A stretch of DNA of 24,000 nucleotides from an uncultured Pseudohongiella sp. Lineage in GTDB: Bacteria > Pseudomonadota > Gammaproteobacteria > Pseudomonadales > Pseudohongiellaceae. Where the stretch lies: the NCBI GenBank assembly GCA_965227685.1, contig CBDDGA010000002.1, positions 1,732,393-1,756,392 of the forward strand, in the 5' to 3' direction. The notes below the pieces were generated by a model. That model had not been told where the DNA came from, did not search any database, and saw only the letters and a list, made by a program, of their open reading frames with translations. The translations under genes and the position numbers were made by a program. Below, piece after piece: positions 1 through 16,993 of the stretch. Positions within the stretch are counted from its first letter, which is position 1, and every line of letters starts with the position of its first letter.

Positions 1-1090
1 CTCACCATTCTCAACCAGCTGTTGCCGAAATTCAGAGTATGCATCCATGAAACCGTTGGCTGCGGCATAGTCTGCCTGACCAACATTTCCGAGGACGCCA
101 GCAATCGATGAAAAACAGGCAAAGAAATCAAGAGAAATGTCGCTGGTAGCTTCATCAAGATTAACTAATCCGGATATTTTCGGATTAAGAACACTATTGA
201 AATCTTTCAGAGTCTTGTGAGTAATGTAGCTGTCGCGAATAATTCCAGCAGCATGAATAACACCATTTATTCTGCCATGTTCAGCGACTGTCTGGCTGAC
301 CAAAAATTCTACAGACTGTTTATCTGCTACATCGATTTGCAGGTACTTAACAGTTGCCCCTAAATCTCGAAGAAGGTCTAATGAAGCTTCTTGCTCAGTT
401 CCGAGCGTTGACCTTCCAACCAGTATCAACTTGCAATGAGAGCAATTTTCAGCAATTGCTCTGGAAACAATCAGCCCTAATCCACCGGCACCTCCGGTAA
501 TCAGATAAACACCCTCGTTAGACCATGGGCTATTACCCCTATCTCTACTTACATCACAGTCAGCAGATGGAACCCAGGACCGTATTTTTCGCAACTCACC
601 ATCATGGCGTATATGTAAATTACTTCCATGATGGGATTCCCTCTCCAAAAGCTCGAGAACTTCAGATAAATTTAACTGGGAACCCACTTCTATTAACTGG
701 CCGCGAAAATTCGGATTTTCCTTCCTGGCAGTCAGCAGTAGTGGATACAAGGCTTCTAGCAACAGGCCGGAAGCATTCAGAGGAATTACGATTTGCAGCA
801 AGGATGGCGTCTGATTGGACTTTAGCGACTCCTGCACCAGTAAGAAAACGTGTTCAGCAACCTCAAGGACACGGGTCGGGAGGTCTTCTGAATCTGGTAC
901 AAACAGGGAGAACTGGTTTGCACCCTTCTCGCGCGCTGCCTGCGATAAATACCCATCATGATCGAATTCCCCTGCTGAACTATCAGCCTGTACATCACAC
1001 AGAAGTACTTTTCCAGGAATCGCAGAGTCGTTATCAGCAGGCGAAGAAATCTCCTGAGGATGCCATTGTGGCACCAATAAATTTACTGCC
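1..1090 (-). other. PKS domain KR (structural plus catalytic subdomains, truncated by the window edge)
   Basis: LLVPQWHP... and LLLTARKENPNFRGQLIEV form the structural half. GVYLITGGAGGLGLIV is the Rossmann motif (TGGAGGLG at 475-498). Also INGVIHAAGIIRDS and FFACFSSIAGVLGNVGQADYAAANGFMDAY. Confidence 0.8.
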
Positions 1091-4000: not shown

Positions 4001-7000
4001 AAGCTAATTCTCGATGGAACGCCGCCTTCGAGATAAAGTGCATTCCAATCAACATCAAAGCCTTTGCACCATGCCTGAAGCAGTCTGGGCCAATCCCGTT
4101 GTTTCAGCCAGGAGCTACTCAATTCTTGTAGTTTCGCCTCTCCACCGAATTGTTGAAGCAATTCCGGGAGTGACTTTTTATTGTCGAAATTCAACTCTGT
4201 ATGATCTGGCCCTGCATGCAGAAAACCTCGTAGTTTTTCCTTCAACTGCAATACTGAACTGGCAGTAACCGCGAAGCGGTAATTCATCGCTTCTCTGCCA
4301 ACCTGCAGCGTATACGCCAGGCTAACCAGATCCTGATACGCATAATCCTGATGTTCAATAAATGAAAGCAAGTTAGCCGCGGCTTTCTTTAGCTGCGACT
4401 CTCCCTTAGCCGACAAAACGACTGCCACCGGGGAACCATCATTGCTGCCTTCGTTAGCAGAGTGTGAAACGGGAGAAATATATTCCTCCAGCACAAGGTG
4501 GGCATTAGTACCACTGAACCCGAATGAGTTAATGGCACAACGACGTACATCCTGCTCTCCCAACTCCCAGTCCACTAGCGAGGAATTGATATAAAAGGGA
4601 GATCCCTCAATTTCAATATGTTCATTCAGATTTTCAAAGCCAACAACCGGGGGAATCTTCTTGTTTTGTATGGCTAGCAAGCCCTTGATCACACTCGCCA
4701 CACCAGCAGCAGCTAGCGAATGTCCAATACAGCTTTTGGCTGAACCAAGCGCACAACTGGCTTCTTTTCTATTCGTCGAGTCAAATGCATTAATCAATGC
4801 CTCAACCTCAATCGGATCTCCAAGTTTGGTGCCAGTTCCATGCGCTTCCAATAAACTTATCGAGTCCGGATCTATGCCGAATTTTTCATGTACCTGCTTT
4901 TCTAGCGAAATTTGAGACTGGCAGCTTGGGGCAGTAATTCCATTTGTCCTTCCATCCTGATTAACACCCCAGGCACGAATTACACCTTTTATTGGATCAC
5001 CGTCTCTTTGTGCGTCCGCCAGCGGTTTTAGAAGGACTGCTCCCACACCTTCACTGGGAACAAATCCATTGGCCTTGTCGTCGAATGCAAAACATCGACC
5101 ATCTTCAGATAACATTCCTCCGCGACCTGCCATGACATGCAAACTCGGGTCAGGCAATACAGAAACGCCTCCAGCCAGAGCCAGATCACAGTTTCCCAGA
5201 ATGAGGTTATTGCATGCCTCTGCTATAGCGACGAGAGATGATGAACAGGCTGTATCAATTGTTAAACAAGGACCATTGAGGTTCAGATAAAAGGCAATCC
5301 TGGCCGCCAATATCGATACCGAATTTCCGATTAGTGCCTGCGCAGTCCATGAATCGGGATTACTGTTTATCCCATAGTTATTGCGTAATGACCCAACGAA
5401 AACACCACAGCTTTTTCCTGACAGGTTCTTGGGATTAATTCCAGCGTCTTCTATGCACTGCCAACTGGATTGGAGAAACAGCCTTTGTTGAGGATCGATG
5501 ACTTCAGCTTCGGCAGGAGACAATTCGAAGAAACGTGGATCAAACTTGTCCGCATTTTCCAAAACTCCCATCTTTTGACAGGAAAGGAGACTTGTATCTG
5601 TTAGTCCCCAGCGTTCCAGTGGAACATCAGATACACAGTTAACACCTTCGGAAAGGTTCTTCCAGTATTCTTCCAAATTGGAGGATTCAGGAAACTGTCC
5701 GGATACTCCGATTATCGCAATCGCACGGCTATCGACTTCCTCATTTACTTTTTCCGGCTGCAACGATAGATCATGGTCAAACTTAGCGTAACCCTTTTCA
5801 ATCTGTTCATCTCTGGTTGGAGCGGGTATCGAGACTGAGGGTTCATTGGCTACATTTTCTGAGACTGAGGGATTTTCTGAGACTGTGCGCTCAGCACCGA
5901 GCCCAACCAGGTGCATCGCCAAATCGGCAATCGTGGGGAAATCGTATAACGTCGACACCGTGATCGAAGATGAAAATTCATTTTTCAGAAAGCGGGTCCA
6001 TTCAGCCCCTATGATAGAATCTATCCCCAACTCTACGAATGAAACGTCAGATGCAATCTCGTCTGCCTCTACATAGAGCACTTCCGCGAGACTTTTTGTG
6101 AGCATCTCGATAGTTGCATCACGCAAACTCCCGGATGATGCAGATGATGCTCCACTGGCTGTCTCCAATGCCGGTGGAGATAGTGAATGATCCACTACAG
6201 TTGCAGAGCCGCAATCAATGCTGGTGACCCTGGCTTCATTCAGAATTAGTGGCATCAGATAGTTTGATAACTGCTGAACACTAGGGTGGTCGTAGAGCAC
6301 AGATACTGATTGCTGCAATCCAAACCGACTATTTATCCAGCGAATCCATTCTGCACTCAGAATGGAATCGAGCCCTAATTCAATGAATACCGCATCTAAT
6401 TCAACATCGGAAACGTCAACATAGAAAATTTCGGACAGGCTGGATAGTAAGCAACTTTGCAATTCCTGAATCGTGCAAGGCCTCTGGTTATTCCCGTCTT
6501 CCACCTCGCCGAGAGTGAAAGATTTCTGGCTTTCAGATGCTGACGCAGGAACTACGGACGCAGGAGAATCAGGGATTTCCTTTGTACTATCGTCGTCTAT
6601 AGTTGTTGACAGTTGTGACGCCAGATGCCCTGCAAGATTTCTGACCGTTGAATGATCATATAGAATCGAAACCGTTAGTTTTCTGCCGAATTCATTTTCA
6701 ATCCAGCGCAGCCATTCAACAGAGATGATTGAATCCAATCCCAATTCGACGAAGCTGCTGTCCTCATCAAGAGAGTCTTCGTCAATAAACATAAGCTCGG
6801 CGAGGCTGGCACGTAACCTGGCTTCAATATCTCTTCTGGTATCAACTACTGATGAAGCTACCTGGGCAGAGTGCGGAGAAGTAACTGAGTCTAACGGTAT
6901 GTTCTCGATTTCGGATGGTTCATCTGATTGGTTACTGTCAGAGGTACTGGAGAAATCGACCGGAGAAAGTAATCGTTTTTTGGACGAACTGTCGTGATTC

Positions 7001-8991
7001 TTTTCAGCCTCATTCCTGACTTGCAGTTCTTTTGGTGAAATATCTGTATTCTTTTCAATGCCGGTTGAGTCCTGATGATTGCCGAAGACAAACTTACTTC
7101 CGACAGGTCTTGGATTAACATTCTTGCAATGCCCTATCCAGAATGAACTTCTGGCAAATGGATACGTGGGCAGATTTAGTCGCGCAGGAAGTGAGCCACC
7201 ATTGTAAAGCTCTCGCCAATCTACATTTTCTCCACCTAACCATAATTGCAGAAGTTTATTTAGCTCGGGCTCTTCGAAGTCATTGTCAATTCTTGATAAT
7301 GAACCGTGTACAGGATCTGAGGTAGTAGTTCCTGATTTCGACGGCTCAACACAACGAGCCATTGCTGCACTATTGGTGGACAATCTGCTTAGCTCATCCA
7401 GCAATGAGGTCATGGAAGACACAACCATACCCCAGCGGTACTTCATTGGTTTGCGCCCCACCTGCAGGGTATAGGCAATATTGGATAGCCTGTCGTCAGA
7501 ATAATTTTGCGTCTTGATATGCTGTACGAGTCGACGCGCGATTGCGGCTAATTGATCATTAGTTCTGGCTGACAGAATGATCAATTCAGGATTAGGTCTC
7601 TGAGATGATGAATCTACACTCTGTTGCTTTGGTGGCTCGACGTATTCTTCAATGAGAATATGAGAATTCACCCCACCAAATCCGAATGAACTGACGCCCG
7701 CTCGCCTGGGTTCTCCATCAGGATGGGCTTCCCAAGCCTCAAATTCTGTAACTACACGAAATGGGCTTCCCTCCAGCTTTATGTTTGAATTCAGGCTCTC
7801 GAAATTCAGACTTGCCGGTATAGCTTTATGCTTTAACGACATCAGAACTTTTACGATTCCAGCAATCCCCGCTGCGGCTTCCAGATGTCCAATATTGGTT
7901 TTGACACTGCCAACCCCGCAACTTTGAGCAGATAGATCGATGCCTTCCGACTCTGCCATCGCCTGATATGCCTTCACCAGTGCATTGAACTCTGCAGGAT
8001 CACCTTTCTGAGTTCCAGATCCATGCGCCTCTACATAGCTGATCTTGTCCGGTGACAGTCCTGATTTTCTGAATACATCAACGAGCATTTGATATTGCGC
8101 GTCCAGGCTCGGAGATGTGACTGTCGATACCTTGCCGCCGTGATTTACTACTGAGCCTGCTACCAGTCCGTAGACATGATCTCCATCAGCCAAGGCTTTA
8201 TCCAAAGGCTTCAATAGAACTAATGCCGCTCCCTCACCTCGCACATAGCCATCGGCGTTTTCGTCAAAGCTTCTACATTTTCCGGTTGGAGAGAGCATGC
8301 CGGCTTTTGAAAAAGCCACATGATAGGTAGGTGTGCATATCAGACTGACGCCGCCCGCTAACGCTGTAGAACACTCACCATTCTTGAGCGCGGTTACCGC
8401 CTGATGTAGTGCAACTAGTGAACTTGAACATGCCGTATCGATTTGCAAGCTTGTTGATTTGAAATCAAATTCATAAGAAATTCGATTTGGAATTAATGAG
8501 GAGAATGTTCCTGTTGCAGCATGTCCTTCGATGGCACTTTCTGGACCTACAAGTAATTCCTTGTAGTCGTTGCTGGCGGAACCAATAAAGACCCCGGTGT
8601 CTGACCCTCTGAAGTCCTGGGGCGAATACCCAGCGTCTTCGATGCAGCTCCATGCAAGTTCAAGCATGAGCCTCTGCTGAGGATCCATATACACAGCTTC
8701 ACGTGAGGAGATATTGAAAAACTTGGCATCGAAAGCGTCCACATTCTCCAGAAACCCTCCCCATCTACTCACAGTGGAGTTAGGCCTGGTTGCATCTGAC
8801 GAATAGTAGTCGTCTACGTACCAACGGTCTTTTGGCACTTCCTTAATAGAGCTCTTTGAACTGGCAAGGTTATTCCAGTAAGCATGATAGTCCTCAGCAT
8901 CTGGAAACTTGCAGCTGATACCAACTATTGCAATCTTGGCCTCATTTCCGTCCTCGGACTTCCTGGCTTTGTATTGAATAACTTTGGGCAT
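1..8991 (-). CDS. Modular trans-AT-type polyketide synthase, N-terminal 2997 aa. The C-terminus lies beyond the left edge. Domain order: KS-ACP-ACP-ACP-KS-ACP-ACP-KS-KR.
   Basis: Hand translation of the minus strand. ATG at 8991-8989 has GGGAG 9 nt upstream. The frame contains no stop codon down to base 1, so an ORF caller that needs a stop would not list it. There are three complete KS motif sets (DTACSSS; HGSGT or HGTGT; NIGH, CIGH or NVGH), five carrier-protein G(L/I)DS motifs, and a KR Rossmann TGGAGGLG plus SSIAGVLGNVGQADYAAAN. No acyltransferase region lies between any KS and ACP. Each KS is followed by a roughly 160-aa flanking region ending in LPTYPF..(F/Y)W, as in AT-less PKSs. Confidence 0.9.
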   Translation of the reverse strand, partial: MPKVIQYKARKSEDGNEAKIAIVGISCKFPDAEDYHAYWNNLASSKSSIKEVPKDRWYVDDYYSSDATRPNSTVSRWGGFLENVDAFDAKFFNISSREAVYMDPQQRLMLELAWSCIEDAGYSPQDFRGSDTGVFIGSASNDYKELLVGPESAIEGHAATGTFSSLIPNRISYEFDFKSTSLQIDTACSSSLVALHQAVTALKNGECSTALAGGVSLICTPTYHVAFSKAGMLSPTGKCRSFDENADGYVRGEGAALVLLKPLDKALADGDHVYGLVAGSVVNHGGKVSTVTSPSLDAQYQMLVDVFRKSGLSPDKISYVEAHGSGTQKGDPAEFNALVKAYQAMAESEGIDLSAQSCGVGSVKTNIGHLEAAAGIAGIVKVLMSLKHKAIPASLNFESLNSNIKLEGSPFRVVTEFEAWEAHPDGEPRRAGVSSFGFGGVNSHILIEEYVEPPKQQSVDSSSQRPNPELIILSARTNDQLAAIARRLVQHIKTQNYSDDRLSNIAYTLQVGRKPMKYRWGMVVSSMTSLLDELSRLSTNSAAMARCVEPSKSGTTTSDPVHGSLSRIDNDFEEPELNKLLQLWLGGENVDWRELYNGGSLPARLNLPTYPFARSSFWIGHCKNVNPRPVGSKFVFGNHQDSTGIEKNTDISPKELQVRNEAEKNHDSSSKKRLLSPVDFSSTSDSNQSDEPSEIENIPLDSVTSPHSAQVASSVVDTRRDIEARLRASLAELMFIDEDSLDEDSSFVELGLDSIISVEWLRWIENEFGRKLTVSILYDHSTVRNLAGHLASQLSTTIDDDSTKEIPDSPASVVPASASESQKSFTLGEVEDGNNQRPCTIQELQSCLLSSLSEIFYVDVSDVELDAVFIELGLDSILSAEWIRWINSRFGLQQSVSVLYDHPSVQQLSNYLMPLILNEARVTSIDCGSATVVDHSLSPPALETASGASSASSGSLRDATIEMLTKSLAEVLYVEADEIASDVSFVELGIDSIIGAEWTRFLKNEFSSSITVSTLYDFPTIADLAMHLVGLGAERTVSENPSVSENVANEPSVSIPAPTRDEQIEKGYAKFDHDLSLQPEKVNEEVDSRAIAIIGVSGQFPESSNLEEYWKNLSEGVNCVSDVPLERWGLTDTSLLSCQKMGVLENADKFDPRFFELSPAEAEVIDPQQRLFLQSSWQCIEDAGINPKNLSGKSCGVFVGSLRNNYGINSNPDSWTAQALIGNSVSILAARIAFYLNLNGPCLTIDTACSSSLVAIAEACNNLILGNCDLALAGGVSVLPDPSLHVMAGRGGMLSEDGRCFAFDDKANGFVPSEGVGAVLLKPLADAQRDGDPIKGVIRAWGVNQDGRTNGITAPSCQSQISLEKQVHEKFGIDPDSISLLEAHGTGTKLGDPIEVEALINAFDSTNRKEASCALGSAKSCIGHSLAAAGVASVIKGLLAIQNKKIPPVVGFENLNEHIEIEGSPFYINSSLVDWELGEQDVRRCAINSFGFSGTNAHLVLEEYISPVSHSANEGSNDGSPVAVVLSAKGESQLKKAAANLLSFIEHQDYAYQDLVSLAYTLQVGREAMNYRFAVTASSVLQLKEKLRGFLHAGPDHTELNFDNKKSLPELLQQFGGEAKLQELSSSWLKQRDWPRLLQAWCKGFDVDWNALYLEGGVPSRISLPTYPFLDYSFWKLATEIPYQGDQQTSFNDEVVKTHAELTGANNPGFKNELHADENAVASQTADWLNHLLRSTLSSLLCISEDDIEDDLPFSELGLDSISSVEWMKTINSETGGSVEASEIYNYPTLEKFKEYLIESFEHSPLPDISRGRFAIAGESPTVLTSVTAAPAPASEDRSLNHRINDVVAHSEVSPEGDPTTIVGSQDQEILIDGVELTQFLQRSLGEMLHLNSSDIESDIPFIELGLDSINGVEWVGMINQKLEIDISASDIYNNSTIEKFARFIAEHKGVHSLDAKAKTPSSTSETGNPGVLGLKRTSTVQIKDVSLIPEAEEGIESSQNDAIAVIGISCQFAGSPDVDTLWKNLENGKELIEPALRWGADVHKNGLSSQSEQTCTDGGFVKGIDEFDSDFFRLSPLECKYMDPQQRLLLSNAWKVTEDAGYAGTMAGRRCGVYVGCCGSDYSNLFSSPPPQAFWGNATSVVAGRIAYHFDLEGPAVTIDTACSSSLVALHAACQSLRSGEIDMAISGGVTLLCTPSIFVQANDANMLSPTGKCYAFDERADGFVPGEGVALVMLKRVEDALRDKDHIYGLIKGSGINHDGETNGITAPNGISQEQLIRSVHKQCGISASQIQMAESHGTGTKLGDPIEFKALASALTSESESNRHCALGSIKTNVGHTMAAAGVAGLIKVLLSIKNKKIPPSLNFGTGNPAIDFENSPLYVNTELKNWDVTPSGKRVATVSSFGFSGTNAHIVVEEGPSEERVELTDSPSLIALSAMNEEQLQDQASALVSFCERNPSANLADISFTLLTGRKHFEYRIALVVDNVEQLKTRLSGWLRNERSQDLQAGRLSSDIKGQGSSSGNPDDNYIYKYQKSTSYAEKQELLAAVSQLYVQGAVLDYADLFYVGSAYRIPLPTYPFANTRYWVDNSDSQSASESIASSELSQANKQADLDSGGSPGSHFKDSTVGNDNKAVNLLVPQWHPQEISSPADNDSAIPGKVLLCDVQADSSAGEFDHDGYLSQAAREKGANQFSLFVPDSEDLPTRVLEVAEHVFLLVQESLKSNQTPSLLQIVIPLNASGLLLEALYPLLLTARKENPNFRGQLIEVGSQLNLSEVLELLERESHHGSNLHIRHDGELRKIRSWVPSADCDVSRDRGNSPWSNEGVYLITGGAGGLGLIVSRAIAENCSHCKLILVGRSTLGTEQEASLDLLRDLGATVKYLQIDVADKQSVEFLVSQTVAEHGRINGVIHAAGIIRDSYITHKTLKDFNSVLNPKISGLVNLDEATSDISLDFFACFSSIAGVLGNVGQADYAAANGFMDAYSEFRQQLVENGE
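1741..2990 (-). other. PKS domain KS3 (catalytic triad intact)
   Basis: IAVIGISCQFA start. IDTACSSSLVAL (Cys codon 2500-2502). ESHGTGTKLGD. KTNVGHTMAAAG. Ends at GTNAHIVVEE. Confidence 0.85.
3165..3385 (-). other. PKS domain ACP5
   Basis: FIELGLDSINGVEWVGMI. Ser codon 3265-3267. Trp at Ser+6. Confidence 0.8.
3610..3830 (-). other. PKS domain ACP4
   Basis: FSELGLDSISSVEWMKTI. Ser codon 3709-3711. Trp at Ser+6. Confidence 0.8.
4485..5740 (-). other. PKS domain KS2 (catalytic triad intact)
   Basis: IAIIGVSGQFP start. IDTACSSSLVAI (Cys codon 5245-5247). EAHGTGTKLGD. KSCIGHSLAAAG. Ends at GTNAHLVLEE. Confidence 0.85.
5915..6130 (-). other. PKS domain ACP3
   Basis: FVELGIDSIIGAEWTRFL. Ser codon 6016-6018. 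Trp at Ser+6. Confidence 0.8.
6255..6480 (-). other. PKS domain ACP2
   Basis: FIELGLDSILSAEWIRWI. Ser codon 6364-6366. Trp at Ser+6. Confidence 0.8.
6620..6850 (-). other. PKS domain ACP1
   Basis: FVELGLDSIISVEWLRWI. Phosphopantetheine Ser codon 6730-6732. Trp at Ser+6 (codon 6712-6714). Confidence 0.8.
7645..8943 (-). other. PKS domain KS1 (ketosynthase, catalytic triad intact)
   Basis: IAIVGISCKFP start. Active-site Cys in IDTACSSSL (codon 8428-8430). EAHGSGTQKGD (His codon 8023-8025). KTNIGHLEAAAG. Ends at GVNSHILIEE. Confidence 0.85.
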
Positions 8992-9199
8992 TTAGAAGCG
9001 CTCCCACATTTCAGCATTCAGTCGTTAACATTAATTCTTCAACGCTCGTTCTAATCAAAGCATCTAAGACTTGTAAATCCGAACTCACAAAAACAATGAT
9101 TGGACGTACTTTGAATTTGTGTTACCGGAATATCGTATTTAAATATTTTGATACACGGTCTGCGTACGCTGGGTTGGCACATGACAGCCACGTATGTTT

Positions 9200-9251: not shown

Positions 9252-9668
9252 TCAGTAAATTCCAGAAGCAGAAAGCAATAAGTCTTCTGGTTCGAATTCT
9301 TCATAAACCAGAGATGCATTTGGCTCTATCTCAGAAACCACATCCATTACCTGGCTACCGATACATATTCTGTAATGCTTGCAATGATCACTTTGAATCC
9401 CAGGCAGTGCATCCAGAGAGTCCAGCCACTCTGAAGCTCCGGATACTGAGAGAGGCTGGGAAGAACATTTTGCCAGCGCCCCATTGGTCCTTGATTCCTC
9501 GATTGAATATCGATAATGAAGAGGGAAAGGTTCGAACTTGATCTCAAGCTTGCTGCTCTCTTTGAAGTCACCCGATATGTAGATGCTCAACGAAGATGCA
9601 TTTGTATCAAAACGAAGTCCGTCGTAGTCATAATCCACTTCACTTAACTTTTCGAAAGTATTCACCAA
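9252..9668 (-). CDS. Hypothetical protein, about 138 aa, no family recognised
   Basis: The track ORF 9252-9713 opens with GTG at 9713 and has no SD. A strong AAGAGGAGG lies inside it, 6 nt before an in-frame TTG (9668) and 9 nt before GTG (9665), so I prefer the shorter start. I see no recognisable motifs. It sits directly upstream of the PKS gene on the same strand. Confidence 0.5.
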   Translation of the reverse strand: MVNTFEKLSEVDYDYDGLRFDTNASSLSIYISGDFKESSKLEIKFEPFPLHYRYSIEESRTNGALAKCSSQPLSVSGASEWLDSLDALPGIQSDHCKHYRICIGSQVMDVVSEIEPNASLVYEEFEPEDLLLSASGIY

Positions 9669-9783
9669 TGCATACCTCCTCTTAACTCGGTAGGTTTGAG
9701 CGATTCCGCTCACTTATGGAGACTTACTATTGGTTACTGCCAACTAGGACTTTCTACTGCAAACACGAAATTTGCGGATTGCT

Positions 9784-10043: not shown

Positions 10044-10820
10044 TTAATAATTTCCGATTACGTTCCTGCTCCTGGCGACAGCTTCCAGGTACTTGTAAAT
10101 CAATAACCCAGCCACGAAGAAGACAGCCGAGTTAAGAACAACAATAATCAAATGCATTACTTCAAGTTGAGAATTCTGCAATATGACATTCTTGGTCATT
10201 CCGATTGCAGGGTAATACGGAAACAGATTCATCAGACTGTTGTCACCTATGTCCAGAATCGGAACAGTCAATACCAGCAATATCGTTCCCATAATTACGT
10301 TTGTCGCATAAACATAAGCCTTCCCCATCTGTAATCTCAGCCCGCATATTACAAATCCAATTCCAAGAATGGATGGAACTGACAACAACAGAACAAGAAG
10401 CAATGTAAGATAGTCCAGGCTTGGCCAGCGGCCTAATAACTGAATTGCAACCACAGCTAACATAACGGTAAATACAATTGTGTGGAAGGTATAGGCCAAC
10501 ACTCTGGTTGTTATAATCAGCGGCAAGGAATTGCGAGAAATTAACAGCTGCTGAATGAACCCATCAGCACCCATTACTTCGATTGTATTTACGGCAGAGT
10601 AATAAATCAGAGTCCCGTAAACCCAAAGAATATACCCGACCAAAAGCTCGTCCGCCAAAGCAAAAGGTTCTTTTACGGGCACAGACCCTATCAGCCAATA
10701 ACAGATTACAACTAGCACAAGAGTACGAAAAACGGCAAATGAAACGATATCAAACCAATAACGCCTGACATCCAGCAACATATTTGCATTTTCATTCACT
10801 AACAGGGGAAGCAATCTCAT
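10044..10820 (-). CDS. Integral membrane protein, ABC-2-type transporter permease-like (about 6 TM helices)
   Basis: 258 aa and almost entirely hydrophobic, with about six predicted helices (for example FDIVSFAVFRTLVLVVICYWLIG, LTLLLVLLLSVPSILGIGFVICGL, LIIVVLNSAVFFVAGLLIY). Its size and its position downstream of an ABC NBD-like gene fit an ABC-2 permease. No diagnostic motif can be verified by eye. Confidence 0.55.
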   Translation of the reverse strand: MRLLPLLVNENANMLLDVRRYWFDIVSFAVFRTLVLVVICYWLIGSVPVKEPFALADELLVGYILWVYGTLIYYSAVNTIEVMGADGFIQQLLISRNSLPLIITTRVLAYTFHTIVFTVMLAVVAIQLLGRWPSLDYLTLLLVLLLSVPSILGIGFVICGLRLQMGKAYVYATNVIMGTILLVLTVPILDIGDNSLMNLFPYYPAIGMTKNVILQNSQLEVMHLIIVVLNSAVFFVAGLLIYKYLEAVARSRNVIGNY

Positions 10821-11068: not shown

Positions 11069-11746
11069 TTACTGAATCAAACCATCAAATCCCTCGACGT
11101 TTCCGTCGTAGCTTACGCATCCTTCTTCAATCAGAAGAACACGATCACATAGACCTTTTAAATATCCAGCGTCATCGGTTGCTATCAACAAGCACTGAGA
11201 TTCGTCATCAATTGACTGGTCCAGAATTTCCTGCAAATAAGGGAGAGATAAAGTAGAAAGCGACTCCTCAGGGGTATCGATAATTATCAGCCGAGGATTG
11301 TGAATAATCGCACATATAATCGCTGCCCGCTGCCTATATCTTAAAGATAATGTCCCTATTTCTTCATCTCGAGATTCTTCCAGCCCAAATCTATGAAGCA
11401 GTTTCTCCAGCTCCTTCGAACAATCCTGCCTACTCATTCCTCTTAAAACACCAAGGTACAGCGCATTTTCAACCACGCTCATTCTGTGATTCAAATTGCC
11501 GTCGCCCTCAAGAATAATACCAATCTCATCGCCACAATTAACTTGTTTTAACAGCGACTTTCCTTGCAAACATATTTGACCGGAATCCCAGCTCGTTAGC
11601 TTACATATAGATCGTATTAAAGAGGATCTGGTCACATCTTCTCCTCCCAGTATTGCAAGCCGTTCACCAACATTTGCGGTAAAACTTATTCCATCAAGTA
11701 CTTTTCGTCCTTTGAGTGACTTTACAAGATCCTTTACTTCTAACAT
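11069..11746 (-). CDS. ABC-transporter nucleotide-binding-domain homologue with degenerate catalytic motifs (225 aa)
   Basis: The overall NBD layout is clear: MLEVKDLVKSLKGRKVLDGISFTANVGERLAILG..., ...LSLRYRQRAAIICAIIHNPRLIIIDTPEESL..., ...LCDRVLLIEEGCV. I take the start at ATG 11746, the typical NBD N-terminus, 16 nt after the luxR stop. The track start at 11797 would overlap luxR by 35 nt. Confidence 0.75.
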   Translation of the reverse strand: MLEVKDLVKSLKGRKVLDGISFTANVGERLAILGGEDVTRSSLIRSICKLTSWDSGQICLQGKSLLKQVNCGDEIGIILEGDGNLNHRMSVVENALYLGVLRGMSRQDCSKELEKLLHRFGLEESRDEEIGTLSLRYRQRAAIICAIIHNPRLIIIDTPEESLSTLSLPYLQEILDQSIDDESQCLLIATDDAGYLKGLCDRVLLIEEGCVSYDGNVEGFDGLIQ

Positions 11747-11762
11747 TCTCAATTCCCATCTT

Positions 11763-12551
11763 TCATTGAACAGGTAAGTCCGGTTTAACAATTCCATACA
11801 TCAGCGCTTTGGCAACTGCGTGCTGACGATTGCTGGCGCTCAGCTTTTCCATGCTATTCTTCAGATGAAAATTTGCTGTACTTACTGATACTTCTATAAT
11901 TTTGGATATTTCCCACGCTGTTTTCCCTTCGCATGCCCAAAAAAGACATTGCTTTTCTCTTTTAGTCAGCTTGAAGTCGTTGTCGCCATCGGGCTGCTGC
12001 GTCTTCATTGTTTCCGACTGACCAAGAATGCAAGTGCGCAGCCAGGGAACCAGAACCAGTGCTTTCTTGAGTTCTTTATCCGTTTGTTCACTCGTTCTGT
12101 TTGAAGAGAAACTCAATAGAACATAGTCTCCCGCAGGTGATTTGAATGAAAATGAGACACCGCTTAATTGCCCATTCGCATTAATCAACTTGAAGAAGTC
12201 CTGATAATGCTCCTTCTTATATAGATCCAGCTCAATCAGCTCATCCCATCGTATCGGGGTGGAATTTGAAATTGCGTAGTGAAGCATTGGATCCACAAGG
12301 TACAACTTATTTTTTTTGTACTTAGTGGCCCATTCATCTGCTTGCGTTGTATTCACCAGCACGTTGAAGCACGTGAGTGATGTTGGACTACATACGCACA
12401 TGAAGTAGTTATCAAATCCCAGAACATCAGTAATCATCGGCAATCTAAGCTCAGGGCTTTCAACGTTGATTATTTGCTCCAACTGTTGAATGGTCTCTTC
12501 GTAGCCCGACCCGATTGAATCCACATTAATCTCTTTAGATGCGAAGCTCAT
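11763..12551 (-). CDS. LuxR-family quorum-sensing transcriptional regulator (autoinducer-binding domain plus C-terminal LuxR HTH)
   Basis: The N-terminal domain has W-x3-Y-x8-DP-x13-W (WATKYKKNKLYLVDPMLHYAISNSTPIRW) with the same spacing as TraR W57/Y61/D70/P71/W85 and LasR W60/Y64/D73/P74/W88, followed by GQLSGVS (the G113 region). The C-terminus LTKREKQCLFWACEGKTAWEISKIIEVSVSTANFHLKNSMEKL is a canonical LuxR/GerE HTH. AGGAG lies 9 nt upstream of the ATG. The start overlaps the upstream gene by 17 nt. Confidence 0.85.
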   Translation of the reverse strand: MSFASKEINVDSIGSGYEETIQQLEQIINVESPELRLPMITDVLGFDNYFMCVCSPTSLTCFNVLVNTTQADEWATKYKKNKLYLVDPMLHYAISNSTPIRWDELIELDLYKKEHYQDFFKLINANGQLSGVSFSFKSPAGDYVLLSFSSNRTSEQTDKELKKALVLVPWLRTCILGQSETMKTQQPDGDNDFKLTKREKQCLFWACEGKTAWEISKIIEVSVSTANFHLKNSMEKLSASNRQHAVAKALMYGIVKPDLPVQ

Positions 12552-13479
12552 TTGATTCCGCTCCTATATAGATGCTGTTTTCTTTAAGGATACTTTTGTA
12601 TTGCTTGCAAGATTCGCGAACCATTCTGCTACTCGACATAAGCCCTTCATCGAGGATCTTTAATGAACTGTCGTGCTCTTTACAATTTGACGCTCGCGCT
12701 TTTATAGCTTCAAATCTCAGCCGTTCATTAGAATGCTTAGAGGAGATATCTTTTAGGATTTGTTCACTGCCCTCTGGCTCGAGCATCGCTGCGGAGTAGA
12801 TTAGTGCCTGCAGCCTGTTCTCACCCAATATCGATTTGATTTTTGATGATCTGATATCAAACTCGTACTGGTTCTTGTATGCAGTGTTTCTGTTTATTTC
12901 TACCAGGTTTAGAGAGATCGACATACTTTCTGGAGGGTGTTGTACGTGTACGTCCTTGTGAGCCCTATATAGCATCACATCTCCTGCTCTGAGGTACTCC
13001 TCTCCGCAGTATTTTAGGTCTACTACTTCGCCCACAAACCCCGCGACTGAATCATGGTCATACTCATACAAGTCAGTTCTATATCCAGGCCCAAGATATC
13101 CAACAGTCAAAAAGTTGAAATTGTGGTCATGGCCCAGCCCATATGAAAATGCACTTGCCCCGCTGCTTCCATAAACGAAGTCGTTTTCAGAAGGCCAGAA
13201 GTTAGCCCGGATCATGTATTGCTTTTTCTGATCCAGACTTAACAGTATTACTTGAGGAACATAGTTATTCTCAAGCCCGATATTGGACAGGTCTTCCTCA
13301 AGCTCCCTCATTACATAGTCTGCGAGGAAAGACTTATTGTTGGAAAGCGCTTTCAGCAAAGGAGCTACTTCTCTGTATGATTGCTGGTCTGCAGGATCAA
13401 AATTTGCCTGCTCAAGTTGTTCAATAAATTCATCCAGAGCTAAAGATCCACATTCATCGACATTTATCTTGATTGACAT
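12535..13479 (-). CDS. Cupin-like protein with an H-x-H...H (thiol-dioxygenase-like) motif and a C-terminal helical HEAT-like tail (314 aa). Paralogue B.
   Basis: GGAGG lies 8 nt upstream of ATG 13479, so the track's MRREDLI extension is unlikely. The core YMIRANFW...GLGHDHNFNFLTVGYLGPGYRTDLYEY (HDH codons 13123-13131) resembles cupin motif 1 of cysteine dioxygenase as I recall it (..[32 protein letters not shown]). A later AHKDVHVQHPPE supplies candidate third-His residues. The C-terminus is alpha-helical and repeat-like. Confidence 0.6.
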   Translation of the reverse strand: MSIKINVDECGSLALDEFIEQLEQANFDPADQQSYREVAPLLKALSNNKSFLADYVMRELEEDLSNIGLENNYVPQVILLSLDQKKQYMIRANFWPSENDFVYGSSGASAFSYGLGHDHNFNFLTVGYLGPGYRTDLYEYDHDSVAGFVGEVVDLKYCGEEYLRAGDVMLYRAHKDVHVQHPPESMSISLNLVEINRNTAYKNQYEFDIRSSKIKSILGENRLQALIYSAAMLEPEGSEQILKDISSKHSNERLRFEAIKARASNCKEHDSSLKILDEGLMSSSRMVRESCKQYKSILKENSIYIGAESNELRI

Positions 13480-13492
13480 AATTAAGTCCTCC

Positions 13493-14416
13493 CTACGCAA
13501 AACTACAGTTAATTAGTTGCCATGTTTCTTCTGCGGCATTTCTGACTAGATCACTTGGATCCAGAGAAGCCATTTTTTCCAGTGCAGTTAATGACTCGTT
13601 AGTATCGAGCGCGATCAGCTCCCGCATGATGTGCCATCTGACCTGGGCATCAGGATGCGAAAGATATTTCTGAAGCAGGCTGAACGAATCAGCTCTTCCC
13701 AAGAGTCTTAGCAGAGTCGAATACATCAAGACTCTTGATGAATTTAGTGACCCATGGCACTGCTCTATCAAAGTGCAACTGCTTTTATCGTATTCCCGGA
13801 CTAAAGCGTTTTCGTCTGGTAGAACAACTGCCTGAATAACTACTATAGAATTCGAAGCCGATTCGAAGGCGAAGGTCTCAATGTTCCCGTCCTGCACCAG
13901 AATCTGGCCATCATGCACTTTCAGTGATCCGGCATCTTGACAATGCTGAGCACCAGCTTCGGAACATCGCCACATTCCTATTTTGCAATCCCCGGACTTT
14001 ATAAATTTCGTAATTATTGTCTGACCAGGGAATACCAGGATTGCATCTTGTTCATTTTCAAGAAGGTTGGCGTCAAAACAGTTTAGAGTTATCTGAAGCT
14101 TTTTATGGTTAAACAGCGTCAGACTTGAAACAGCACCCTTCTGATACCCTCTACAAGGAGGAAGGTAGCTTGTGTCTTCCCTGACTGCTTCCAGCCAGGG
14201 AATCACAAACTCTTTTCTGTCAGTCAGGTAATCAACCAGGCTGTAGGCAAGTTCAATAATTTCATCTGTATCTACCGAACTGCACTTAAGAGCTTCATTC
14301 AGAATTGAGAAATCACTTTCCAGATCGAAGCTTCCCGGGTGGTAGTTTTCTACACTCGCCACACTTCCTTTGAACTTCTCTTTGCATTCATTCAATATAA
14401 GGTTACAGTTGCTCAT
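13493..14416 (-). CDS. Paralogue A of the downstream cupin/HEAT-like protein. It lacks the His ligands and has a C-terminal HEAT-like repeat (307 aa).
   Basis: By-eye alignment to the 314-aa neighbour: YLTDRKEFV with ALSNNKSFL; SLTLFNHKKLQITLNCF with LLSLDQKKQYMIRANFW; ESASNSIVVIQAV with ESMSISLNLVEIN; REYDKSS with YEFDIRSS. VFPGQ occupies the HDH position. The C-terminus HPDAQVRWHIMRELIALD...LDPSDLVRNAAEE looks like HEAT / PBS-lyase-type repeats. GAGG lies 9 nt upstream of the ATG. Confidence 0.6.
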   Translation of the reverse strand: MSNCNLILNECKEKFKGSVASVENYHPGSFDLESDFSILNEALKCSSVDTDEIIELAYSLVDYLTDRKEFVIPWLEAVREDTSYLPPCRGYQKGAVSSLTLFNHKKLQITLNCFDANLLENEQDAILVFPGQTIITKFIKSGDCKIGMWRCSEAGAQHCQDAGSLKVHDGQILVQDGNIETFAFESASNSIVVIQAVVLPDENALVREYDKSSCTLIEQCHGSLNSSRVLMYSTLLRLLGRADSFSLLQKYLSHPDAQVRWHIMRELIALDTNESLTALEKMASLDPSDLVRNAAEETWQLINCSFA

Positions 14417-14463: not shown

Positions 14464-14610
14464 TTACCAACTAACAGGTACTGGTGAATCAATAACGCAT
14501 TGAATCCCACCTACGAAGTTGAGATGATGGCTTCTGGCCATAGCTGTTTTAATTTCAAGTTCGGGCAATGCCATGATGTTGAAGTTTGGGTTATTTTCCG
14601 AGGCTCTCAT
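14464..14610 (-). CDS. Small ORF, 48 aa: MRASENNPNFNIMALPELEIKTAMARSHHLNFVGGIQCVIDSPVPVSW. Candidate precursor or signal peptide.
   Basis: It is not in the track because it is below the 60-aa cutoff. AAGGAG lies 6 nt upstream of ATG 14610 and the stop is TAA at 14464-14466. It sits 47 nt upstream of, and co-directional with, the paralogue pair. There is no independent coding evidence. Confidence 0.5.
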   Translation of the reverse strand: MRASENNPNFNIMALPELEIKTAMARSHHLNFVGGIQCVIDSPVPVSW

Positions 14611-14633
14611 TTCGTGCTCCTTAAGTTTCAATT

Positions 14634-14662
14634 AAAAAGAAATTTCGTCGTCTATCACGACG
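14634..14662 (-). promoter_or_regulatory. Dyad CGTCGT-N5-ACGACG followed on the minus strand by AAATTTCTTTTT. Either a terminator/attenuator-like hairpin or an operator, just upstream of the small ORF's SD.
   Basis: Plus-strand arms are at 14646-14651 and 14657-14662. The minus-strand transcript would read CGUCGU-GAUAG-ACGACG-AAAUUUCUUUUU. The dyad lies 36-52 nt upstream of ATG 14610. Confidence 0.35.
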
Positions 14663-14724: not shown

Positions 14725-15050
14725 ATATCCGGCTATATGACTAATGGTGATATTCGAGGATGAGCGGTATATAGGCGCGGATGTGCGTATTTGCCGGATA
14801 GAGAAAATCACCTGCTTTCGCCTGAAAGGCTGATTCCTGCTGGCATTGCGGGACTATGCTGAGCAGATATTTCCTGTTGAACGGAGTGCCAAATTGGAGG
14901 CATTTGTAGGGTATGGCGGGGCTTGTGCCGTTGTGAAATACGGCATATAGATTCAGGCCGGACTAGCTAAAAAGGTCCGGTCTGGGCATCTAGGTCATGT
15001 GCTTTTAGATGATGTAAGGAAAGTAGGCTTTATCCGAATAACCTACAAAA
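14725..15050. repeat. GC-richer intergenic island with several short CCGGA/TCCGG-centred palindromic units (REP-like)
   Basis: TATCCGGC (14727-14734) pairs with GCCGGATA (14802-14809). Hairpins TGCCGT-N8-ACGGCA (about 14926-14945) and CCGGAC-N11-GTCCGG (about 14957-14979). GGCTTTATCCGAATAACCTACAAAAT (about 15026-15051) recalls the enterobacterial REP half-site GCCTTATCCGGCCTACAAAAT. Confidence 0.25.
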
Positions 15051-15122: not shown

Positions 15123-15860
15123 TCACAGTTTAAGCACATTTTTCATTTGTGCACTTTGTCTTCTTGAAACTGAAACCTCTTCCCCACTGCTCATGACTAA
15201 TACATAATTTCCGTTTTCAGTAGATTCCACTTTTTTGACTTTACTTAAGTTCACTATCGTGCCTCTGTTAGCACGAAAGAATAACTCCCTACTGAGTCTG
15301 TTTTCGATATAACTCATTGTATGTTGAGCTACTATATTTAGGTCCTTTCCCTTAATTTTGACGTAATTACCAATCGATACAATTGTCTCTATTTGTTTAG
15401 GAGTGAATAATTGCGATTTCCCACCATCGTTTATCAATATGGGTTTTTCCATATTTACAAGATTTGAGCTACTCCGATCACTGGCTCCCCCAGCCCGAGA
15501 TCTATATTTGTCCAATGCCTGACCTAACCGGTTTAATTCTACTGGCTTGTGTAGGTAATCAATAGCGTTTACGTCAAAAGCTTCTAATGCATGACTAGGA
15601 TCAGCCGTGCAAAAAATAATCATGCAATTTTCCTTGGCAATTAACCCAGCCAGGTGGAGCCCTGTGATTTCAGGCAGACCAATATCTAAAAATAGTAAAT
15701 CAGGCTTAATTTCCCGTATCTTGCCTATTGCATCCTTCGCGTTGTCTGCCTCGAATTCAATCTGAATATCATCAAACATCCCAAGCAATCGTCTCATCTC
15801 ACTCCGCGCTAATGGCTCATCATCCACTATAGCGACTCTTATAATATCTGCTGATGTCAC
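15123..15860 (-). CDS. Two-component response regulator, REC plus LytTR DNA-binding domain (AlgR/LytT family)
   Basis: The N-terminus VAIVDDEPLARSEMRRLL...PDLLFLDIGLPEITGL is a receiver domain. The C-terminus ...IVSIGNYVKIKGKDL...FFRANRGTIVNLSKVKKV is LytTR-like. GTG start at 15860 with GAGGAA 7 nt upstream, overlapping the kinase stop. Confidence 0.85.
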   Translation of the reverse strand: MTSADIIRVAIVDDEPLARSEMRRLLGMFDDIQIEFEADNAKDAIGKIREIKPDLLFLDIGLPEITGLHLAGLIAKENCMIIFCTADPSHALEAFDVNAIDYLHKPVELNRLGQALDKYRSRAGGASDRSSSNLVNMEKPILINDGGKSQLFTPKQIETIVSIGNYVKIKGKDLNIVAQHTMSYIENRLSRELFFRANRGTIVNLSKVKKVESTENGNYVLVMSSGEEVSVSRRQSAQMKNVLKL

Positions 15861-15871
15861 GGCTAGATTCC

Positions 15872-16993
15872 TCAGTGATCCACAGGTATAAATAATTCTG
15901 TATGAACGAATTTGTCGTTTTGATAGATTTTTAGTTTTGCGCTACTACCATAGAGAAGCCTGAGTCGTTCTTTGCAATTATCAAGCCCTATCCCAAGCCC
16001 TTTACTTTCTTTATCCAGTCGTCCTTCATTTACTATGTCGATCTGAACTCCGTCCTCGTGCATTGTGCTTCCGAGCTGCAGTAGCCCTCCCTCAATCCTC
16101 TTGCTAATTCCATGCTTCACTGCATTTTCCACAAGTGTTTGTAAAAACATCGGAGGGATCTTGATATCTAATGATTCAGCACTCCAGTCCCTTTCAATTT
16201 TCAATCTGTTCTCAAGCCTGACTTTTTCGAGGTCAAGAAAACTGTCAACTATTTCCAATTCATCTTTTAGTAGAATTAACTCATGTTGCTGCTCTAACGT
16301 ATTGCGCAGAATTACTGAAAGTGCCGAGATCATTTCCGATGCCCGGTCCTTATCTACATAGATCAATGATCGAATATTGTTCAGTGAGTTGAACAGAAAA
16401 TGAGGATTGAGTTGTTGGTTCAGAAGCTTCAACTCTGCAATCTTCTGTTGCATCCTGAGAGCTTCATTTCGATATCCCATTTCCCTATTCCTGTTCCAGG
16501 TTTTCAACCCCCAATAAATGCCTCCCCAGCTTAGATAGATTACCCACATAAAAAGACTGCTGCGAAACACTCTGAATGGAAGAGCAGATGCGACTGGCCC
16601 AAGTTCCTGAAATGCATTCAATAAGGCCTCTGGCGGAGGAAGGACAGTGTCAACGAGTGCCAGAATGGGAATCTCAATCAGGCTGGCACCAAGTGCAACT
16701 ATAAAGGTTGCAGCAATAGCTCGCTTCCAGAATTCGGGAATACTCAACTCTATCCACTTCTGGCTTTTAAACCATAAACGCAATAAATGGCTTCCTGTAA
16801 ATCCCAACAGCGCTATATAAACCCCAACTATCAGCAGGCGGTCTGCTGACTCTATTCCTTGTGCATTTAGGCGGTTACTGGGGAGAACAAATAGAATATA
16901 GATAGCCAGAAAACCCAGCCACCCCACTGCCTGACACCACCAGTAGTACCTGGTAAGCGACAAGTCGAACTCAGATTTATCTGGATCAAGCAT
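15872..16993 (-). CDS. Sensor histidine kinase, LytS/AlgZ (His_kinase PF06580-type) family, membrane-bound
   Basis: The N-terminal half is hydrophobic (about 4-5 TM helices). LNPHFLFNSLNNI is the signature phospho-acceptor box of this family. The HATPase region has ENAVKHG and GLGIGLDNCKERL. Confidence 0.85.
   Translation of the reverse strand: MLDPDKSEFDLSLTRYYWWCQAVGWLGFLAIYILFVLPSNRLNAQGIESADRLLIVGVYIALLGFTGSHLLRLWFKSQKWIELSIPEFWKRAIAATFIVALGASLIEIPILALVDTVLPPPEALLNAFQELGPVASALPFRVFRSSLFMWVIYLSWGGIYWGLKTWNRNREMGYRNEALRMQQKIAELKLLNQQLNPHFLFNSLNNIRSLIYVDKDRASEMISALSVILRNTLEQQHELILLKDELEIVDSFLDLEKVRLENRLKIERDWSAESLDIKIPPMFLQTLVENAVKHGISKRIEGGLLQLGSTMHEDGVQIDIVNEGRLDKESKGLGIGLDNCKERLRLLYGSSAKLKIYQNDKFVHTELFIPVDH

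Follow-up and report, generated by a model that had tools for sequence, protein, structure and literature searches.

Among described systems in which a small gene-encoded peptide is matured by dedicated proteins, the MNIO systems (MbnB/MbnC of methanobactin, TglH/TglI, and BufB/BufC of the bufferins) consist of minimal cassettes of a peptide and two proteins. Their small precursor has a conserved leader and a Cys-bearing core, and is handled by an O2-dependent non-haem metal enzyme together with a non-catalytic partner that binds the leader, as MbnC binds the leader of MbnA (PMC10989515). Oxidation of Cys in polypeptides is also carried out by PCO and ADO, two of the thiol dioxygenases (PMC8503633). 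Here we examined a locus on a 24,000-nucleotide stretch of DNA from an uncultured Pseudohongiella sp. (assembly GCA_965227685.1, contig CBDDGA010000002.1, positions 1,732,393 to 1,756,392), referred to in its entirety as the window, in which a short open reading frame (ORF) is followed by the genes of two proteins, A and B. Like the MNIO cassettes, this three-gene module combines a small peptide bearing a conserved leader and a Cys-containing core with a presumed metal enzyme (B) and a presumed leader-binding partner (A). On balance we favour the reading that the ORF encodes the precursor of a peptide made by the ribosome and post-translationally modified (RiPP), which would be recognised by A and oxidised by B, probably at its Cys.

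The precursor-like peptide gene is located on the minus strand (14464..14610), with homologues at the matching position in other loci, and reading from 14610 to 14464 yields the 48-residue peptide MRASENNPNFNIMALPELEIKTAMARSHHLNFVGGIQCVIDSPVPVSW followed by a TAA stop codon. Its ATG is preceded at a distance of 6 nt by the Shine-Dalgarno sequence AAGGAG (14617..14622, minus strand), which can be read directly from the sequence. An earlier note on this DNA, made from the sequence alone, had proposed this ORF, with its AAGGAG-N6-ATG start and TAA stop, as a candidate precursor; the signals and coordinates hold, and only the strand had to be corrected to minus. The Gly-Gly at residues 34–35, the sole Cys (residue 38) and the C-terminal Trp that the note listed are all present. 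The leader comprises residues 1–35 (14610–14506, minus strand) and ends in V-G-G, whereas the core comprises residues 36–48 (14505–14467, minus strand; IQCVIDSPVPVSW) and holds Cys38. The spacings that the note gave for the genes further downstream agree with the coordinates as well: 47 nt separate the peptide gene from A (ATG at 14416) and 13 nt separate A from B when B starts at ATG 13479, which is the start that aligns with the homologues, while B overlaps the following luxR gene by 17 nt and luxR is separated by 16 nt from the gene of an ABC transporter ATP-binding subunit (NBD) if the latter starts at ATG 11746.

Pairwise comparison of the peptide genes of the window and of two related loci (L001 and L003) yielded proportions of synonymous differences (pS) of 0.75–0.91, which amounts to saturation, and proportions of non-synonymous differences (pN) of 0.30–0.36, and in all three genes the two alternative frames are closed by stop codons. 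Judged from these alignments, the small ORF is under purifying selection. Because a homologous ORF stands upstream of the same gene pair in other loci and its protein sequence is constrained, the ORF cannot be ascribed to chance, and we regard the 48 codons as a real gene with near certainty.

A word-indexed protein search with A returned two relatives only, one in a Blastopirellula metagenome-assembled genome (MAG) and one on an 8999-bp assembled contig of a public sequencing run (Logan), and a small gene precedes A in the loci of both relatives (peptide MKNLQPISNLDIMSLPELKMNTALTRSYELNFVGGIQCVLDAPVPMDL in L001 and L002, peptide MNNYHMLANLDINTVPELEVLTSLTKTDHLNSVEGVQCVIEIIFHMSPDEAD in L003). 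An exact-word scan of genome contigs for A found nothing; the profile-derived scan for B that was used instead gave matches in 508 species-representative genomes, nearly all of them Sphingomonadales. The word-indexed search with B returned 426 proteins, and an exhaustive profile search extended the B family to 902 clusters at 50% identity (480 of these at E <= 1e-30). In Sphingosinicella terrae and on metagenomic contigs, B is preceded by a small gene of 44–52 aa and an A-like HEAT protein. When hidden Markov models (HMMs) for the peptide (7 seed sequences), A and B were searched against the six-frame ORFs of 80 loci, A was found directly upstream of B wherever upstream DNA was present. A match to the peptide HMM (E = 1e-6 to 1e-25) lies directly upstream of A, on the same strand, in approximately 70 of 80 independent Sphingomonadales loci, as it does in L001 and L003. 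Where no such match is found, a small ORF of divergent sequence mostly occupies the corresponding site (e.g. MPKIDLANIPGLETAQALFGAVKAQAATYDDSIVEIMVFVYDTAPPPPPPPGLF in Erythrobacter). A short ORF ahead of the gene pair in other genomes, which the earlier note had proposed to look for, thus exists in the same frame and position, and the pair itself occurs in hundreds of genomes.

In the loci inspected, the A and B genes abut or overlap, suggesting coupled translation and a complex of the two proteins. Within the Sphingomonadales, 44 of 73 loci carry genes for an extracytoplasmic function (ECF) sigma factor and a membrane protein of approximately 200 aa directly upstream, and the remainder are bare three-gene modules among housekeeping genes. 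These sigma/anti-sigma genes were found by HMM search, after naive ORF clustering of the neighbourhoods had been spoiled by antisense ORFs in the high-GC DNA. Many genomes hold the module by itself, surrounded by housekeeping genes unrelated to it, so that the functional unit consists of its three genes. More distant branches of the B family retain this trio: in L087 and L088, a 44-aa peptide precedes A and B, behind which come an ABC NBD and a 258-aa permease; L091 has the order B, 36-aa peptide, A and haem-oxygenase-like oxidase; and in L093, the 38-aa peptide MNSLFVEDLDETIAPAGASDSVGGLACGGVFLILLLWC is encoded between a GerE regulator and a small multidrug exporter, with A and B behind the exporter. 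The oxidase gene that follows A in L091 (3592–4575; PF14518) could encode an additional tailoring enzyme.

Column conservation was counted over the 74 peptides that match the HMM. The family shares a leader motif that reads [I/L]-P-E-L ... V-G-G, in which the window residues P16 (70/74), E17 (68/74), L18 (73/74), V33 (73/74) and G35 (71/74) are conserved, and a Cys three residues past the Gly-Gly, corresponding to C38 of the window, is present in 72 of the peptides. Cores of the window clade and of the main Sphingomonadales clade have the Cys at exactly this register. The segment past the Gly-Gly measures 12–23 residues (median 15), is mostly hydrophobic, and varies between peptides, so that mean pairwise identity amounts to 56% for the leader versus 34% for the core. 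A conserved leader, Gly-Gly and Cys followed by a variable hydrophobic tail make up a pattern of conserved leader and variable core, which is, at the level of sequence, the signature of a RiPP precursor. The earlier note had expected the C-terminal tail to be conserved instead; it is the tail that varies, and the leader, Gly-Gly and Cys that are kept. In locus L006, two tandem peptide genes (4323–4532 and 4687–4941) with similar leaders and differing cores lie upstream of a single A-B pair.

Two further interpretations of the peptide were tried and rejected. A cross-link between Cys and an aromatic residue (C38 and W48, which are 10 residues apart) was abandoned, as the corresponding column holds a Tyr in only 22 of the 74 peptides and a Leu in L001; in some Sphingomonadales cores, a Cys and a Tyr are likewise 10 residues apart. 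A GlyGly-CTERM or PEP-CTERM sorting signal was discarded from the sequences alone, which contain no basic C-terminal cluster and no upstream mature domain.

Protein B (314 aa; 12535..13479, minus strand) was modelled with AlphaFold from a 36-sequence alignment (pLDDT 87.7), yielding N-terminal helices, a cupin beta-sandwich barrel and C-terminal helical repeats. Its best fold matches in the PDB (Foldseek) are all thiol dioxygenases, headed by the 3-mercaptopropionate dioxygenase of Pseudomonas (4tlf, 4e-8) and further including mercaptosuccinate dioxygenase (8vni), rat and human CDO, ergothioneine dioxygenase, PCO4 and PCO5, with target-normalised TM values of 0.58–0.68 for the CDO entries. 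Across 88 B sequences, no variation is seen at H117, D118, H119, D176, H178, Q180, Y171 and R172. The spacing of the H-x-H...H arrangement fits the two classical motifs of the cupin superfamily; H117, H119 and H178 of B, which stand at this spacing, may correspond to the three-His triad of rat CDO (H86, H88 and H140). By manual alignment, B seems to have S187-S189-N191 in place of the Ser-His-Tyr triad of the second sphere. B is the plausible catalyst, which we propose to be a metal- and O2-dependent oxidase of the core peptide.

According to the earlier note, the precursor reading would fall if the gene pair belonged to a well-characterised family of small-molecule enzymes unrelated to peptides. 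The fold of B does resemble that of small-molecule thiol dioxygenases, whereas at the sequence level B forms a separate family, within a superfamily that also includes the peptide-acting PCO and ADO. Several B homologues are named "transposase" by NCBI (e.g. P0109, which is WP_162806461.1, as well as P0038, P0064 and P0096). This label is probably a propagated mis-annotation, because neither sequence, fold nor context supports it. In locus L089 (1041–3746), the 901-aa homologue P0152 consists of a full B domain (residues 1–293) fused to a TPR-S and an adenylate/guanylate cyclase domain; an A-like gene lies directly upstream, and the fusion is present in two samples. This fusion hints at a signalling output of the B domain.

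Protein A (307 aa; 13493..14416, minus strand) consists of N-terminal helices, a cupin-like beta-sandwich lacking the His triad, and C-terminal HEAT repeats. Its sole family match is Pfam HEAT_2 at residues 236–297, and neither A nor B matched any catalytic Pfam or NCBIfam family. The AlphaFold model of A (pLDDT 78.6) has the same three-part architecture as B, and its top PDB fold matches are of the CDO family (4qm9, 9e-7, Foldseek), while alignment of the A sequences revealed no conserved His in the barrel. The earlier note had called A and B paralogues, and the shared fold and architecture bear this out; a relation between the sequences could not be detected, with BLASTP of A against B yielding E = 0.18 and hhalign of the two profiles yielding a probability of 38% from a weak in-register match over the C-terminal helices only. 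Having the same fold and C-terminal domain without a sequence relation, A and B are thus paralogues at the fold level only. We propose that A is a non-catalytic, degenerate partner that recognises the leader. Over 73 loci, partial Spearman correlations linked leader identity to A given B (0.415) and not to B given A (0.062), whereas core identity yielded 0.25 for B given A versus 0.17 for A given B. Such co-variation of sequences is suggestive of A binding the leader and B handling the core, and we consider it reasonably probable that the peptide is the substrate of the A-B pair.

In the window, the genes on the minus strand are ordered as LytS kinase, LytTR regulator, a gap of approximately 510 nt, peptide, A, B, LuxR, ABC NBD, permease, a 153-aa protein and a polyketide synthase (PKS). 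The LuxR-family regulator (11763..12551, minus strand), whose gene overlaps the end of B, has the domain layout of a receptor for acyl-homoserine lactones (AHLs), with Pfam matches to Autoind_bind (8.6e-20) and GerE (8.3e-15). It is present in L001 and L002 and absent from L003, and a scan of the window proteins that covered part of the ORFs found no gene for an AHL synthase. In Sphingosinicella terrae (L004, 567–3431), the sigma/anti-sigma-peptide-A-B cassette has, just upstream, genes for an Autoind_synth AHL synthase, a P450, a PhyH protein and a LuxR receptor, an echo of the LuxR gene of the window operon that may be coincidental.

The ATP-binding subunit (242 aa; 11069..11797, with a likely start at ATG 11746, minus strand; Pfam ABC_tran) has its best NCBIfam similarities with ABC-2, DrrA and lantibiotic-protection types, all below the cut-off. 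In 3/3 loci of the window clade (window, L001 and L003), B or LuxR is followed by an ABC NBD, which is found in the distant L087 and L088 as well. It is followed by a putative permease (258 aa, multi-pass hydrophobic; 10044..10820, minus strand) without a Pfam match; a 258-aa partner likewise follows the NBD in L001 and in L087 and L088, and the permeases of the window and L087 share a weak, in-register similarity at the C-terminus only (E = 0.001). Between the permease and the PKS lies a conserved 153-aa protein (9252..9713, minus strand), which is 45% identical to the product of L001 12783–13190 in the Blastopirellula MAG and is matched by neither Pfam nor PADLOC; a function in immunity or as an accessory protein is possible. 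The PKS itself corresponds to a stop-free minus-strand frame of at least 2997 codons (1–8991), which begins at 8991 with MPKVIQYKARK... and runs off the start of the window. It is of the trans-AT type (KS and RhiE-like linker), and L001 shares this layout with a PKS of 5417 aa. Positions 1–9000 had seemed to be free of ORFs because the PKS frame leaves the window and is omitted from the ORF list. Neither an Rfam scan of the whole window nor PADLOC, searched for defence systems, yielded a match.

Upstream of the peptide gene, a LytTR-type response regulator (15123..15860, minus strand; Pfam Response_reg and LytTR), also located upstream of the peptide in L001, L002 and L003, is preceded by a LytS-type membrane histidine kinase (15872..16993, minus strand; Pfam His_kinase, PF06580), and this LytS/LytTR pair stands upstream of the peptide in 3/3 loci of the window clade. 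A three-locus alignment revealed two 10-bp direct repeats, ACCGCTCATC and ACCATTAGTC, at a spacing of 20 bp (14739..14768, minus strand). The repeats ([AG]CCnnTnnTC) are unique in each locus and lie 127–131 nt 5′ of the peptide ATG (7483–7512 in L001 and 5985–6014 in L003), making them a candidate site for the LytTR regulator; we infer this function, as the search pattern was derived after viewing the alignment. Also conserved in the alignment are TATACT (14707–14702, minus strand), a possible –10 element, and then the palindrome GAAGATT-N10-AATCTTC (14694–14671, minus strand), of which the 5-bp core AGATT/AATCT is invariant in the three loci, while two flanking positions change on both sides. 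The palindrome could be an operator, perhaps for LuxR, or a weak RNA hairpin, and since folding of the 5′ leader RNA over the three loci yielded –4.55 kcal/mol only, no RNA element is claimed. Closer to the gene, at 14646–14662 of the window, CGTCGT-GATAG-ACGACG forms a perfect 6-bp inverted repeat, with a T-rich run behind it, 36 nt 5′ of the peptide ATG; it scored as terminator-like on both strands and is only loosely conserved in L001 (CAACA-N10-TGTTG). The gap between regulator and peptide is approximately 1 kb in L001 (6660–7640) versus approximately 0.5 kb in the window, and contains short ORFs that resemble fragments of an IS transposase.

For the complex of A and B, its target residue and chemistry, cleavage at the Gly-Gly, export and regulation, we infer the following course of events. 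The peptide would be translated first, as the substrate encoded by the three-gene module, and A, complexed with B, would bind the LPEL...VGG leader. The mononuclear metal site of B would then oxidise the core with O2, most likely at the thiol of Cys38, because of the fixed register of this Cys and the thiol-dioxygenase-like fold; taken by itself, the assignment of the Cys as the oxidation target is a tentative one. The leader may subsequently be removed after the Gly-Gly by a protease, and in the window clade the product would probably be exported by the co-transcribed ABC transporter, with the operon probably being driven by LytS/LytTR via the two direct repeats upstream of the peptide promoter, perhaps together with LuxR. 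A itself would be an anciently diverged structural paralogue of B that has lost its metal site. It is also conceivable, if rather doubtful, that the module represents a new RiPP class, in which a heterodimeric cupin-HEAT maturase (one catalytic subunit and one degenerate leader reader) oxidises an internal Cys of a short hydrophobic core (e.g. to a sulfinic acid or a thiol-derived cross-link), and in which the exported product is a membrane-active signal sensed by the LytS-type kinase, creating a peptide autoinduction loop beside a giant PKS cluster in a Gram-negative-type bacterium.

A number of observations weigh against a precursor that is oxidised by B. The chemistry proposed for B derives from the fold similarity of its model only: no Pfam or NCBIfam model, CDO_I and PCO_ADO included, matched B at E <= 0.1, a sequence-profile search of the PDB with B found nothing, and hhalign of the B profile against rat CDO (query verified as 2b5h_A) yielded a probability of 0.2%. 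By sequence, B has no tie to the characterised thiol dioxygenases, and it should not be classified in the CDO or PCO family. Moreover, the co-variation statistic was computed from non-independent pairs, which limits this evidence to being suggestive. Cores without a Cys are also found behind a recognisable leader in L046, L056, L075, L085, L084, L015 and L060 (from Erythrobacter, Sphingorhabdus and related genomes) and in L087 (3999–4133), one such peptide reading ...IVEIMVFVYDTAPPPPPPPGLF. In these clades, A has diverged strongly, and the H-D-H...H site of B is complete. Cys-less cores beside an intact metal site in B imply that the Cys is not a universal target, and the chemistry would then be either not strictly thiol-directed or clade-specific. 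Furthermore, an exporter and a protease are missing from most Sphingomonadales loci, a leader peptidase was found in none of the loci inspected, and it could be the neighbouring giant PKS, not the peptide, that the ABC transporter and LuxR of the window serve. Finally, the Sphingomonadales cores resemble half a transmembrane helix, and an unprocessed small membrane protein would fit them too.

In the main rival explanation, which we consider rather improbable, the peptide would be no cleaved precursor; it would be a small protein, anchored in or associated with the membrane, that forms a sensory or regulatory device together with A and B. Its Cys could, for example, be oxidised by B in dependence on O2 or redox state, with an effect on the neighbouring signal-transduction proteins, which are the anti-sigma/ECF sigma pair in Sphingomonadales and LytS/LytTR and LuxR in the window. 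In keeping with such a device, the ECF sigma gene and that of the approximately 200-aa membrane protein are directly upstream in 44/73 Sphingomonadales loci, a two-component system adjoins the module in 3/3 loci of the window clade, and the homologue P0152 joins B to TPR-S and adenylate/guanylate cyclase domains. PCO and ADO, moreover, have a known role in sensing O2, their target being Cys in proteins (PMC8503633). The absence of an exporter and a protease from most loci, the Cys-less clades, and the resemblance of the hydrophobic C-termini to a membrane segment, also fit. However, regulators situated within the cluster are common in RiPP clusters as well, and the cores, with 12–23 residues past the Gly-Gly, have neither the length nor the constancy of a conserved structural subunit. 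The tandem peptide genes of L006, the dedicated exporters in several branches and the extra oxidase of L091 are, in addition, typical of biosynthetic clusters, and they argue for the modified precursor.

Far less probable is that the peptide is an ordinary double-glycine leader peptide, of the class II bacteriocin or ComC type, that is cleaved and exported by a peptidase-containing ABC transporter (PCAT) encoded elsewhere, with A and B being unrelated neighbours. The peptide does share with double-glycine leaders (those of class II bacteriocins, ComC and Nif11/NHLP) a Gly-Gly at the boundary of leader and core, with V-G-G at this junction in 71–73 of the 74 peptides, an N-terminal, acidic, helical-looking leader, and an ABC transporter in the operon. 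However, the window leader reads ...LPELEIKTAMARSHHLNFVGG, placing E-L at –19/–18 and not at –8/–7, so that the Gly-Gly is present and the spacing of the LSxxELxxIxGG consensus is not, a misfit that the earlier note had already remarked upon. No NCBIfam model matched the window peptide (E <= 0.1), or two Sphingomonadales peptides and two from relatives in the window clade (E <= 1). No NHLP or Nif11 leader model of NCBIfam matched among the peptides tested, and no Pfam or NCBIfam bacteriocin or leader model matches the peptide. The note's statement that a C39-peptidase transporter is missing stands for the window proteins scanned with Pfam, in which no Peptidase_C39 domain was found and the NBD and permease are separate small proteins. 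The peptide is, moreover, tied to A and B in hundreds of genomes, with or without a transporter.

Equally unlikely is the explanation in which A and B are small-molecule enzymes, namely a thiol dioxygenase and its helper, that tailor or detoxify the product of the trans-AT PKS, with the small ORF as a mere passenger. The giant PKS gene starts approximately 260 nt downstream of the last gene of the operon, both in the window and in L001, and the solved structures nearest to B in fold mostly act on small thiols. However, peptide-A-B occurs without a PKS in Sphingomonadales and other loci examined, and the small ORF is under purifying selection and co-varies with A. The weakest explanation, a chance ORF of only 48 codons with a fortuitous ribosome-binding site, against which the earlier note had cautioned, is refuted by comparison of Planctomycetota-like with Sphingomonadales genomes, which share it in position, strand, frame and sequence, and by its saturated synonymous sites, constrained protein and closed alternative frames.

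The reading of the small ORF as a candidate precursor peptide is thus supported by comparative genomics and structure prediction. In line with the earlier note, which had not recognised the enzyme pairing from any described RiPP class, the pair corresponds to no Pfam, NCBIfam or PADLOC family, and no literature description of it was found. The full-text literature searched contained no description of a cupin or thiol-dioxygenase-like RiPP maturase with a HEAT partner, and an earlier account in subscription journals is possible. If the proposed function is correct, the RiPP repertoire would gain an enzyme family unrelated to the known ones, formed by a mononuclear cupin with a HEAT domain and its own pseudo-enzyme paralogue, and B would be the first bacterial thiol-dioxygenase-like enzyme dedicated to a gene-encoded peptide. 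This family is large, considering its 508 species-level genomes and 902 clusters at 50% identity, and yet has no Pfam or NCBIfam family. Its recurrent association with ECF sigma/anti-sigma pairs and with two-component systems, together with the fusion to a cyclase, suggests a role in signalling or envelope stress, and not just in antibiosis.

With regard to regulation, the window resembles the LytTR peptide quorum-sensing systems (Agr, Com and Pln) in having a LytTR regulator and a membrane kinase beside a small peptide gene and an exporter, as well as paired direct repeats upstream of the peptide promoter. Its kinase, however, is of the LytS/PF06580 type and not of the HPK10 type found in Agr, Com and Pln, its repeats are spaced at 20 bp versus the canonical 21 bp, the bacterium is of the Gram-negative type, and no AgrB or C39 processing enzyme was found among the window proteins scanned with Pfam. 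With regard to the enzymes, the thiol dioxygenases (CDO, the 3-mercaptopropionate, mercaptosuccinate and ergothioneine dioxygenases, and PCO/ADO) are the best structural matches of both A and B, and B has an H-x-H...H arrangement spaced like the two cupin motifs. B differs from them in its extra C-terminal helical-repeat domain of approximately 100 residues and in its obligate pairing with a His-less paralogue and a dedicated peptide gene, and its proposed target Cys would be internal and not N-terminal.

Bufferin operons are reportedly linked to ECF sigma/anti-sigma pairs, as are the Sphingomonadales modules. The MNIO catalyst is a DUF692 TIM barrel with a multi-iron site, whereas B is a cupin of the mononuclear type, and neither DUF692 nor a DUF2063/MbnC-type partner was detected with Pfam and NCBIfam, the predicted folds being cupin and helical repeats. 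In the module, moreover, the partner A is a degenerate paralogue of the enzyme, both A and B carry HEAT-like domains, and the peptides are without a Sec signal. By analogy, the logic of an MNIO enzyme and its partner, in which an O2-dependent iron enzyme acts on Cys with the help of a protein that binds the leader (PMC10989515), is the closest functional parallel to the module, with unrelated folds. Finally, the features that generically define a RiPP precursor, namely a short ribosomal peptide encoded beside its modifying enzymes and a leader that is conserved where the core varies, are found here with conserved synteny in more than 70 loci, suggesting that the module follows RiPP logic with a new enzyme family and with the modification chemistry proposed above.

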